Source: a virus. Taken from it: a stretch of 64,000 nucleotides of DNA. Within the stretch, counting starts at the first letter, position 1; each line of letters starts with the position of its first letter. This document shows, in pieces, positions 52,921-55,340 of the stretch. The stretch spans positions 32,001 through 96,000 of IMG/VR virus record IMGVR_UViG_3300017917_002918; one strand, given 5' to 3'. A program made the translations under genes and the position numbers. The notes beneath the pieces were generated by a model. The model saw nothing but the letters and a program-made list of their open reading frames with translations, was not told the origin of the DNA and did not search any database.

Positions 52921-53618
52921 ATTTATACCCCCAATATTCCAAATAAAATTTAGTTTTTACACACTTTAAATTTCAGCTTCATCGAATCCATTCTTAATTA
53001 CATTGTCACTAAAGCTAACGCCCTTTAAAAAATCTACAAATAAATCTACAACATCATGAATATCCTCATATTCATCAAATGTCTTTGATACAGTTACAAC
53101 TCTACCATCTGCCTCTACATATTGAAAGCTATAAGTTGTTCTATTGTTTTCCATCTCAATCATTTTTACACCATCCTTATATAATTATTTATCACCTGTT
53201 TGCCATAACCACGCCAAACAATAACCCAAAAATCCAAACGCTCCGAACGAAAACACACCAGTGTTATAAGAAATTAACGCATCAAATATGTAAAACAAAA
53301 GCCATAATGTTAAACCTTTTGCTAGTGAGTATTTACGTAATTTATCCAATATGATTTTCACAAAAATCACCTCACTCTTTACTCAGTCATATAAGTTAAT
53401 AACCCACCATAACAATACCAACATTGCCATTAGAAAATATACAATGATTAATACTAAATTTGCATATGCAATTATAATAAACGGGAACAGCATATAACTA
53501 TACTTTCTGAAGCTATTTAGATTGTTGGTAGGTGTGTGCAGAAAGTGAATTAAATTATGTATTACCAAGAATCCTACTGCACTTAGTAATATTCCTGCAA
53601 AATACAAATCGTAATACA

Positions 53619-53828
53619 TCATTCACACACCTTTGCAACAGTAAATATTATTAAAATAAGAACAACTAATGCTATTGGAATCAATATTGGACTTAATACC
53701 CACCACCATGACCAAGCTATGAAGTTTGTTAACTTCAGCCCAATGAATAGAATTGTGAGTAATCCCAAAAATCCTATTCCACCACTATTATTGCTACTAT
53801 TATTGTTTGATGTCGCCATGAAAATCAT
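53619..53828 (-). CDS. Small two-TM membrane protein
   Basis: GGIGFLGLLTILFIGLKLT-FI-WSWWWVLSP. Confidence 0.7.
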   Translation of the reverse strand: MIFMATSNNNSSNNSGGIGFLGLLTILFIGLKLTNFIAWSWWWVLSPILIPIALVVLILIIFTVAKVCE

Positions 53829-53844
53829 CTCCTTTACCTTGTTA

Positions 53845-54106
53845 TGTGGCTATATAATCATAAGTTAATTACAAACCCTGAATCTCTGCACGAGCTAAAG
53901 CTCGGCAGGTTCTTACATACTATTCAACTTCTATAATAAATCTCGATTTATTATCACTTTATTATCACTAATTGATTTCTGTAAGACTTTCACTAACAAG
54001 AGTTACAACTAACTCATTGACGTTAGTATATAGGCTCAATTCAAAACCTGTTTCATATCTATATTACATTTTTCAACGCATTATTTAAGTAAATCACATA
54101 GCCACA
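53845..54106 (-). ncRNA. Orphan TnpB-type omega-RNA-like locus (IS200/IS605 right-end scaffold plus about 18-nt guide position) closed by a 15-bp stem
   Basis: Right-end hairpin CTGCCGAGCTTTAGCTCGTGCAG then AGATTCAG; loop TGAATT (54043-54038) complementary to GATTCA (53884-53879), a pseudoknot; further hairpins; no tnpA/tnpB adjacent. Confidence 0.65.
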
Positions 54107-54121
54107 CTTGGTTATATATTA

Positions 54122-54150
54122 ATATTACACTACTTATGTTGAATTGTCAA
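54122..54150 (-). promoter_or_regulatory. SigA-type promoter driving the ncRNA locus
   Basis: TTGACA-17 bp-TAATAT; repeated motif just upstream (54161). Confidence 0.65.
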
Positions 54151-54176
54151 TATAATTATCATAATTTAATTATAAA

Positions 54177-54368
54177 TCACTTATTTTTACCAATTCCCAT
54201 GATTTTACCTGTAATGAACGACATAACAAGCACATACACAGTAACGGCAACCCATGTCGGAAGTATGTACAGTAATTGAGCTACACCCATAATGATTGCT
54301 AGAATTGGTACAGTAACTAACAAACCCATACCTGTTGTTTTGAAAAATGACTTAATTTTATTCATCAT
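54177..54368 (-). CDS. Small membrane protein
   Basis: Two hydrophobic helices. Confidence 0.55.
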   Translation of the reverse strand: MMNKIKSFFKTTGMGLLVTVPILAIIMGVAQLLYILPTWVAVTVYVLVMSFITGKIMGIGKNK

Positions 54369-54369
54369 A

Positions 54370-54747
54370 TTACTTTTCTCCTTTCGGGTTTAATTTATAA
54401 AACTCTTTAATTTCGTTATATGTACTACCAATTACATTTTTAAAATCATTAACTTCATTAATCGCTTTCTTGAATAGCTTCTCTTTAACTGTCAGGTTAT
54501 AAGCACCAATTGATATTGCTAACCAATCACCATAATATCCAGTCCATTTCCACGTGTTAGTATTTTTATCAAGCAATTCTAATTCCATTTGTGAATCTTT
54601 AACTACAGCTCTAACATAATCATTAAACATTACAATAGTTGACCTAGGTTCAACTTTTTTTCTTTTAACTTCACCATCTTCAGTTATTTCTTCCATATCT
54701 TCAATTTCAACTTGATCTAAATCATCTCTTTCATCATCCATAACCAT
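54370..54747 (-). CDS. Hypothetical protein
   Basis: ORF with RBS. Confidence 0.55.
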   Translation of the reverse strand: MVMDDERDDLDQVEIEDMEEITEDGEVKRKKVEPRSTIVMFNDYVRAVVKDSQMELELLDKNTNTWKWTGYYGDWLAISIGAYNLTVKEKLFKKAINEVNDFKNVIGSTYNEIKEFYKLNPKGEK

Positions 54748-54764
54748 ACCTCCATAGTCTTATT

Positions 54765-55340
54765 TTAATTACAGCATTTGCATTTTACGTCAAACAAATC
54801 ATTTACAAATATTTCAGCGGAGTCCTTTAGTTTACTTAAATCTCCGTCGTTTTGAACTATGTAATCATATGCGAAGTCAAACACATTTGCATCTGCTTCG
54901 TTGGTTAAAATCTGTGATATTCTTGAGTTTACCACAAGCACTGTCACAACTTCATCCTCATTGAATTGGTCTTTTAGTTTTTGAATCTCAATTGGTTCAC
55001 GAATATGAACGCATATGATTGACCTATCTGAATTGAGTCTCACCAATCTAAAATCAGATATTCTTTTCATCATATACTTCAATGGTGAATCATAATATTT
55101 TGTTGCTAAGTCCTTTAGCTCAGCTAAGAAACTTCTATCACGCTCATATTTACAACCATTCCACCCTAATATTTTTCCTGCAAACTTCACTTCGTCTACA
55201 CTTGAATAGTTTTCTACATAGCAGACCTCGCCTAGTAGTTTCGAAAATGTATCTTTACCTGTACCACCAGAACCATTAAGTATTACAATTTTTTGCACAT
55301 TATCACATCCTTTACAAGAATAAAATATCCAACCTCTCAA
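54765..55340 (-). CDS. P-loop nucleotide kinase (dNMP-kinase-like)
   Basis: ILNGSGGTGKDT, HIREP-E, N-AD..V. Confidence 0.65.
   Translation of the reverse strand: MRGWIFYSCKGCDNVQKIVILNGSGGTGKDTFSKLLGEVCYVENYSSVDEVKFAGKILGWNGCKYERDRSFLAELKDLATKYYDSPLKYMMKRISDFRLVRLNSDRSIICVHIREPIEIQKLKDQFNEDEVVTVLVVNSRISQILTNEADANVFDFAYDYIVQNDGDLSKLKDSAEIFVNDLFDVKCKCCN

Follow-up and report, generated by a model that had tools for sequence, protein, structure and literature searches.

What kind of RNA, if any, is encoded in a 350-bp gap between two small minus-strand open reading frames (ORFs) of a large phage genome is the question raised by the locus described here. The window, namely the whole 64,000-nucleotide stretch that was analyzed, corresponds to G000:32001–96000 of a virus record that measures 167,401 bp and has terminal repeats (IMG/VR record IMGVR_UViG_3300017917_002918), where the prefix G000 denotes whole-record coordinates; in the window, the gap is bounded by the ORFs at 54177–54368 and 53619–53828. 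From the letters alone, a first-pass annotation had placed in this gap a stand-alone guide RNA gene resembling the omega-RNAs of TnpB nucleases, equipped with its own promoter and a closing stem, and all of the features that it listed were indeed found on the minus strand within 1 nt of where it had put them. In minus-strand order, the locus was shown to consist of a copy of a phage-wide motif, a promoter, a 16-nt arm, ~230 nt of strongly structured sequence, the complementary arm, a ribosome-binding site and the next gene. Our preferred reading, to which we assign a probability of roughly 0.58, is that the region is a remnant, similar to the protein-less IS200/IS605 derivatives termed PATEs, of the phage's own TnpB element of the IS200/IS605 type with TTAC specificity, that it has kept only the omega-RNA and no left end, and that its RNA would be used in trans.

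Comparison of the region with the phage's own genome by BLAST revealed a second copy (copy B) at G000:23584–23801, with 88% identity including an indel. The homology begins at 54088, within the last ten codons of tnpB, where both differences between the copies are synonymous, and ends at 53878, delimiting a 211-nt scaffold (53878–54088, minus strand) that was detected by both BLAST and cmsearch. This scaffold comprises the last 30 nt of the tnpB frame (…LNNALKNVI*), helices 1–8, a pseudoknot and a right-end hairpin, and terminates in GAGATTCAG. The window scaffold and the tnpB-linked copy B are ~95% identical, the differences amounting to about nine substitutions and an 11-nt duplication. Per unit length, substitutions are ~3 times as frequent in the unstructured 5' part as in the structured core. 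Three of them fall at paired positions, where the window copy always retains the pair; at one of these three it is copy B that is mismatched.

For an independent assessment, 80 bacterial loci encoding relatives of the TnpB associated with copy B were fetched, and a covariance model (R1) was built from an alignment of 36 of their tnpB 3' flanks, from which both phage copies were excluded. In nearly all of the 80 loci, the scaffold lies directly 3' of tnpB and ends in TCAG (mostly GAGnnTCAG), after which the flanks diverge; one metagenome-assembled genome (MAG) contains five identical elements, each with TTAC at its left boundary and TTCAG at its right, in unrelated flanks. By these sequence features the family has the classic IS608-type arrangement, in which TTAC would serve as both target and target-adjacent motif (TAM) and the guide would be drawn from the right flank. 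The consensus structure of the 36 scaffolds displayed compensatory changes at 34 of 47 pairs and was 94% paired, in comparison with ~40% for slid controls. Searching the window with R1 by cmsearch gave a full-length match (143.6 bits, E 6e-32, 54092–53875, model positions 1–206) containing only two non-canonical pairs, one in helix 7, at the site of the duplication, and one in helix 8. For comparison, the tnpB-linked phage copy scored 155.5 bits and tnpB-linked bacterial scaffolds 71–200 bits. The resemblance to a TnpB omega-RNA proposed in the first-pass annotation was thus recovered both by the BLAST copy at a tnpB 3' end and by the independent model, and, as far as sequence and covariation can tell, it is essentially certain that 54088–53878 is a full-length TnpB omega-RNA scaffold. 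No Rfam family was matched, either over the window at the gathering threshold or over both copies at an E-value threshold. This empty search excluded the group I intron, 6S RNA, Y-RNA and retron non-coding RNA (ncRNA), which had been considered on account of the closing stem, and the omega-RNA model explains the region.

The individual structural elements were also found in place, each of the internal hairpins listed by the first-pass annotation being a covarying helix of the family model. Helix 1, the hairpin AGGTTT-TGAATT-GAGCCT (54032–54049), is 99.5% paired in the family with compensatory changes, and its loop provides the 5' strand of the pseudoknot; GATTCA (53879–53884), lying within the right-end terminal motif, is the 3' strand. 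In the window, TGAATT (54043–54038) can pair with GATTCA (53884–53879), and the corresponding family helix, which joins the helix-1 loop to the last bases before the guide, is 98% paired in the 36 relatives with compensatory changes at three of six pairs, in support of the pseudoknot predicted earlier. The right-end hairpin CTGCCGAGCTTTAGCTCGTGCAG (53886–53908) was identified as family helix 8, with compensatory changes at seven of eight pairs, and its GCTTTAGC loop is shared by the left-end hairpin of the phage's element. The 11-nt tandem duplication (AGTGATAATAA twice, 53948–53969) falls at helix 7 and is absent from copy B and all relatives; here cmsearch placed 15 extra nt in the helix-7 loop, which corresponds to alignment columns 170–184 and is the one place where family members differ in length. 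The scaffold ends at 53878 with the family right-end motif TTCAG, directly after which the similarity to copy B drops sharply. Folding of the transcript region gave a minimum free energy (MFE) of −73.9 kcal/mol (z = −5.1 against shuffles).

On its other side, the start of scaffold homology is abutted by TTAC (54089–54092), the target and TAM tetranucleotide by which elements of this IS605-type family are bounded. Between this TTAC and the scaffold no left-end hairpin (of the CCTCCACGCTTTAGCGTGTGAGG type) was found, and further upstream there are only the promoter and an unrelated 63-aa ORF. Of tnpB, just the last 30 nt of the reading frame are left, and the scaffold therefore does not overlap the 3' end of a tnpB gene. 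Set against the hallmarks of a PATE, the window copy has the right-end hairpin and the TTAC insertion site and lacks the left-end hairpin. From its boundaries, the copy looks like a TTAC insertion that has lost everything between its left boundary and the 3' end of tnpB.

The first-pass annotation had noted that neither tnpA nor tnpB nor a left end was visible, which is correct for the window but not for the genome: a search of the rest of the phage, as it had proposed, showed copy B to coincide precisely with the 3' end of an ORF of 498 aa (G000:22117–23613), a cognate tnpB located outside the window, 62 kb from the window copy. The phage carries three tnpB genes (G000:5.4–6.5, 22.1–23.6 and 115.7–116.9 kb), all outside the window, of which two are canonical with a zinc ribbon and one is the divergent 498-aa gene, the only match in the genome to the profile of its clade (G000:22123–23610). 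The 498-aa ORF shows a weak Pfam OrfB_IS605 match, below the Pfam gathering score, and homologues of its product number in the thousands in Clostridia and Tissierellia and are in part annotated as transposase. Alignment with the two canonical TnpBs of the phage by hhalign (96% probability) placed D239, E349 and D445 on the RuvC D-E-D triad; these residues are invariant in the clade, whereas all four zinc-finger cysteines are lost. The profile of this TnpB found no relative among PDB sequences, which marks the clade as divergent. Although its AlphaFold2 model was mediocre (predicted local distance difference test score, pLDDT, 62), the top Foldseek hits of the model were ISDra2 TnpB and Cas12f (E 6e-7), and Cas12m, LaTranC (9jfo) and Fanzor were also among the leading ones. 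A nuclease-dead, TldR-like partner, as had been suggested earlier, is at odds with the intact triad and with the canonical nature of the two other phage TnpBs.

The element harboring copy B (element B, G000:21370–23783) is 2,414 nt long and bounded by TTAC and TTCAG, and its removal at the second TTAC, and only at that one, restores a 135-aa open frame of a tail-region gene. It carries promoters of the same type as the window locus. No Y1 TnpA was found in the phage genome, so that mobilization would depend on host transposases. The closest relative of the 498-aa TnpB (77% identity) is encoded on a phage-like fragment, a 6,970-bp Logan contig from SRR24297604 (L011), where its neighbors are an anti-Pycsar Apyc1-like gene of the metallo-β-lactamase (MBL) fold and a Bro-N gene; this fragment may stem from a distant relative of the present phage.

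The promoter predicted in the first-pass annotation was confirmed by a promoter scan as a sigma-70-type sequence, TTGACA-17-TAATAT (54122–54150, minus strand; 10/12 match), with a predicted start near 54115. Directly upstream of its −35 box, a whole-genome motif scan located a copy (54155–54173, minus strand) of a phage-wide 19-nt motif (consensus GTAATTAAATTATGATAAT), and this motif-plus-TTGACA architecture is common to 15 promoters in the genome. The leaders of these promoters have a median length of 65 nt, versus 302 nt at the present locus, where the scaffold makes up most of the excess. Downstream of the scaffold follow, together at 53619–53835 (minus strand), the ribosome-binding site AAAGGAG and the first downstream gene, encoding a small membrane protein of 66–69 aa; as its start, the ATG at 53819, which gives 66 aa and is preceded by GGAG at a distance of 9 nt, is more likely than 53828. 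No terminator-like site was found within 53000–55000, and none separates the scaffold from this gene; the promoter is thus shared with the downstream genes for small membrane proteins. The claim that the RNA has its own promoter was not supported: judged from sequence, the promoter is an ordinary phage promoter, and the scaffold RNA would be a 5' leader unless it is processed.

As placed by the drop in homology after TTCAG, the guide would be the 20 nt directly 3' of this motif, GGTTTGTAATTAACTTATGA (53858–53877, minus strand). Positions 1–18 of it (53877–53860) lie outside the closing stem and correspond to the 18 free nucleotides that had been noted previously. Positions 6–20, in turn, belong to another copy of the 19-nt motif (53872–53854) with one or two mismatches, while positions 1–5 are not part of it. 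In the whole genome, the motif occurs in 48 copies at up to three mismatches and in 76 at up to four; the copies, examples being those at 54173–54155, 53872–53854 and 26098–26080 (G000 58098), are co-oriented with genes and are found either 3–5 nt upstream of a TTGACA box or immediately preceding a ribosome-binding site. The motif contains the palindrome ATAATT-A-AATTAT, and candidate roles are those of an UP element, an operator or a promoter for a phage factor. A copy also lies inside element B, at G000:21430. On the simplest reading, the guide is nothing but the native 3' flank: the motif copy would be native sequence upstream of the next gene, and the element would have inserted 5 nt before it.

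Searches for a target gave uniformly negative results. In the phage's own genome, TTAC stands in register with none of the motif copies, and every TTAC site differs from the 20-nt guide at seven or more positions and from its first 12 nt at two or more; the closest sites are not motif copies. Among viral contigs, TTAC followed by the guide gave no real target, only a single 18-mer that diverges straight afterwards and was judged to be chance, and there was likewise none in three MAGs and in 401 genomes from the class to which a Tissierellaceae MAG belongs. As with IS605 elements in general, the guide is expected to fit only its own site in the unoccupied state. The guides of the two phage scaffolds begin with ATCTTACAATCC... 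and GGTTTGTAATTA..., respectively, and the right flanks at 53877–53860 and G000:23784–23801 agree in register at 11 of 18 positions (~5.5 expected), which may reflect chance, a target preference or shared ancestry.

On the preferred reading, that of a trans-used omega-RNA, the RNA would be made as the 5' leader of the small-membrane-protein operon and bound in trans by the phage TnpB, because the scaffold is ~95% identical to the cognate one; processing by TnpB together with cellular RNases would then trim the leader. The nuclease would thereby gain a second guide, GGTTTGTAATTAACTT..., equal to the native sequence 3' of the insertion. Such a guide would fit only the unoccupied site, in which TTAC is directly followed by the guide sequence, so that the phage itself would be immune, and an insert-less allele, for instance in a co-infecting relative, would be cut and then repaired from the occupied copy, resulting in homing or retention. 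With three tnpB genes and no Y1 transposase, any benefit from the guide would lie in co-infection rather than in transposon retention. The closing stem may additionally bound or stabilize the RNA. Binding and use by the co-resident TnpB would be the most likely consequence of the arrangement, and one that we consider rather probable. The earlier proposal of a guide RNA acting in trans gains from the cognate TnpB in the same phage and from the trans use known in other systems, and such use by the phage TnpB is plausible.

The locus can be compared with several known systems. It is common for PATEs to carry omega-RNAs whose use has to be in trans, with TnpB from other elements as the proposed partner (Meers et al. 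2023, PMC10055086), and in other TnpB systems an omega-RNA supplied in trans was as active as in cis (10.1101/2023.11.20.567912). Like PATE omega-RNAs, the window copy is a tnpB-less right-end scaffold with a cognate TnpB elsewhere in the genome and a guide taken from the right-end flank, and true PATEs of the same scaffold family, these with a left-end hairpin, exist in viral contigs (L140, L157). Unlike them, it has no left-end hairpin and would not be mobilizable by TnpA. It also differs in that its TTAC directly adjoins the final 30 nt of tnpB, that it occupies a gene leader served by a phage promoter, and that its flanks pair into a 16-bp stem around it. With the canonical cis omega-RNA, or right-end element RNA (reRNA), of ISDra2 and other IS608-type, TTAC-specific elements, the family has in common a scaffold overlapping the 3' end of tnpB, a multi-helix fold with a guide-adjacent pseudoknot, an end at the right-end cleavage motif with the guide immediately 3', and a TAM equal to the target site TTAC. 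It is tnpB itself that is missing at the window copy, and the cognate clade departs from canonical ISDra2/IS608-type TnpB in its 498-aa length, the loss of the zinc-finger cysteines, the score below the Pfam threshold and the lack of a PDB match. TldRs are nuclease-dead TnpB repressors, some of them phage-borne (10.1101/2023.11.30.569447), and their guide RNAs resemble the present one in being omega-RNA-derived, residing in a phage and having a guide similar to promoter-associated sequence; here, in contrast, the RuvC triad of the partner is intact, there is no TAM-flanked promoter target, and the guide is explained by the insertion site. Finally, TranC and the type V tracrRNA–crRNA (trans-activating and CRISPR RNA) pairs, which arose from a split omega-RNA, likewise employ a promoter-driven scaffold uncoupled from the 3' end of tnpB, whereas at the window copy only one guide is present, repeats are lacking and the nuclease gene is far away. 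What is known is thus the kind, a transposon leftover of the sort represented by trans-used PATE omega-RNAs; what is new is the left-end-less, promoter-driven, stem-enclosed and phage-borne variant.

Comparable forms were found in other viruses. When IMG/VR was scanned with a pattern made of two conserved blocks of the scaffold, 30 loci were obtained, and at least eight of these scaffolds lack tnpB. Two of the eight are PATEs that share one contig (L140) and have both their left and right ends in full, and another PATE (L157) carries an internal promoter 8 nt ahead of helix 1. Three copies (L142, L143 and L149) have partly lost their left ends, and in one more (L145) neither a left end nor TTAC is recognizable within the 200 nt upstream; one viral contig holds both a full element (L133) and an orphan (L142). 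At L160:9182–9560 (IMG/VR contig 3300029825_000032), a left-end-less copy has TTAC fused directly to the tnpB 3' remnant and lies among tRNA-like sequences, and this is the closest architectural parallel to the window copy. In two contigs of Ruminococcus sp. MAGs (L066:1326–1760 and L049:2100–2470), a TTGACA-17-TATAAT promoter, a scaffold and repeats were found, in this order, directly upstream of TnpB genes of the same clade, with no scaffold 3' of the gene. The scaffold there scores ~95 bits with R1 and is devoid of the normal TTCAG end; the repeats, three or four in direct orientation with a 61-nt period, each consist of a right-end hairpin plus GTGTCAG and are separated by spacers of ~33 nt. 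By its layout, this arrangement looks like a CRISPR-like or TranC-like mini-array that arose within the 498-aa TnpB clade. Unlike in these two contigs, no repeat, and hence no repeat-spacer array, was found 3' of the window scaffold.

The feature that most invites a different explanation is the closing stem, whose arms, GTGTGGCTATGTGATT (54092–54107, minus strand), in the left flank outside the omega-RNA homology, and GATTATATAGCCACAT (53844–53859, minus strand), were paired in the MFE fold over 16 bp including four G.U pairs, slightly more than the 15 bp with three G.U pairs described in the first-pass annotation. A pairing of this length was reached by only one of 20,000 random flank pairs of the same geometry from the phage's own genome (P about 5e-5). 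It could be that the stem is what matters, as a cis-acting hairpin of the leader that stabilizes the mRNA of the downstream genes or directs RNase III-type processing, with the scaffold as a passenger, or that it was co-opted to release the RNA. In line with such a role, all four non-Watson–Crick positions are G.U on the transcribed strand and A.C on the other, which argues that selection acts on the stem as RNA; joined to each other, the flanks by themselves give a hairpin of −23.9 kcal/mol; and the stem departs from perfect complementarity at 4 of 16 positions, versus ~5% divergence of the scaffold from copy B, a hint that the stem predates the insertion. Yet none of the 48 other motif copies is enclosed by a stem of more than 10 bp, none of the eight other orphan scaffolds has such a closing stem, the genome thus offering no precedent, and 16 bp with four wobble pairs is short for RNase III. 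We therefore regard a purely cis-acting leader as improbable. The stem itself is probably, by the above sequence comparison, a leader hairpin that was there first and in whose loop the element now lies; alternatively, it may have been recruited to bound or stabilize the guide RNA. The same arms might instead be read as the terminal inverted repeats of a 264-bp non-autonomous transposon, similar to a miniature inverted-repeat transposable element (MITE), carrying the scaffold as cargo between 8-bp target duplications, since they form an imperfect inverted repeat and the 8 nt outside them, TAACCAAG (54115–54108) and TAACAAGG (53843–53836), agree at six of eight positions and resemble a target-site duplication. 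The arms, however, have no copy elsewhere in the genome, the 35 matches obtained in a metagenome scan with the 5' arm plus TTAC were all unrelated and due to chance, the 3' arm overlaps the native phage motif, and every mismatch is RNA-compatible on one strand only; in the lack of any other copy of the arms, this barely conceivable explanation was rejected. As a separate observation, part of the 3' arm (53856–53845) can pair at 10 of 12 positions with 54038–54027 (the 3' strand of helix 1 plus TATATA), a pairing that would compete with the pseudoknot hairpin and could be a switch, or chance.

A more serious competitor is an inert relic, that is, an IS605-type insertion in a gene leader whose left end and tnpB were deleted and whose right end is passively transcribed, intact only as it is young or has been gene-converted with copy B. 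The assertion that the locus is not just a scar accordingly fails to stand as made: with ~5% divergence from the tnpB-linked copy, the intactness is equally expected of a young neutral relic. Several further points weigh against a trans-used guide RNA. The duplication in helix 7 is of the slippage type that occurs where DNA is unconstrained, and TnpB might bind less well because of it; no real TTAC-plus-guide target was found in the phage, viral contigs or the 401 bacterial genomes; no related phage carrying this locus was found in INPHARED, IMG/VR and protein searches; and without a Y1 TnpA in the phage and without a left end, the copy cannot excise, which makes retention moot except during co-infection. 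TTAC next to the scaffold has a chance expectation of about 2%, so that the junction itself could be fortuitous, although the independent recurrence of the direct TTAC–scaffold fusion in L160 makes this less likely. Truncated copies similar to the present one are, moreover, scattered in other viral contigs. Against a mere relic, on the other hand, stand the intact scaffold, pseudoknot and terminal motif, a model score like those of functional tnpB-linked copies, the lower density of substitutions in the structured core, and the co-resident cognate TnpB, apparently active to judge from its sequence and served by the same type of promoter, binding to which would be hard to avoid if both are expressed. 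On balance, we consider a relic unlikely, though well worth keeping in mind. Very improbable, in our judgment, is an RNA-guided regulator or decoy, in which many phage promoters would be addressed by a TnpB/TldR-like protein carrying the motif-like guide, or host TnpB would be titrated by the RNA. The match of guide positions 6–20 to a motif that precedes the TTGACA boxes or ribosome-binding sites of many genes speaks for the former, and the many copies of this TnpB family in bacteria related to the likely host speak for the latter; nevertheless, the partner is not TldR-like, neither a motif copy with TTAC in register nor a TTAC site close to the guide exists, the TAM-proximal positions 1–5 lie outside the motif, and the motif here is most simply native sequence upstream of the next gene, as at other sites. 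The decoy for host TnpB put forward by the first-pass annotation was found unsupported. Equally hard to credit is a variant in which an exapted guide has been retained for its likeness to the motif, so that the phage TnpB or a host homologue would act as an RNA-guided timing switch at many promoters, with the stem controlling guide exposure.

If the preferred reading of a trans-used omega-RNA is correct, the locus would offer a clean natural case of one phage with a TnpB nuclease and an unlinked, promoter-driven second guide RNA. Provided that the RNA is loaded, the phage nuclease would be naturally multiplexed, with the extra guide cutting insert-less alleles only, and RNA-guided marker exclusion or homing between co-infecting phages, which a recent review lists only as a possibility (PMC13565253), would become directly testable. 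The clade of this TnpB holds true PATEs, a promoter-bearing PATE, left-end-less remnants, and mini-arrays consisting of a promoter, a scaffold and repeat-spacer units, which together form a graded series from a transposon guide RNA to a separate guide gene. Should the copy be only a relic, its value would be limited to the correct annotation of a structured 5' leader.

With respect to the neighborhood, homologues of the downstream gene are annotated as small phage membrane proteins of the Tmemb_185A/PF10269 type. Searches of INPHARED phages in near and distant modes matched only this small membrane protein, and no relatives of the neighboring proteins were found in IMG/VR. The 125-aa neighbor is an ORFan among 5.8 billion proteins, and the 69-aa neighbor is a member of a huge family with no close orthologue. 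Large viral contigs carrying the scaffold have nothing else in common with the window. Elsewhere in the genome, three of the motif-plus-TTGACA promoters, at G000:58366, 71167 and 162828, the first two of which lie in the window at ~26366 and ~39167, have unusually long predicted leaders of 355, 212 and 205 nt, respectively, and might hide ncRNAs as well.

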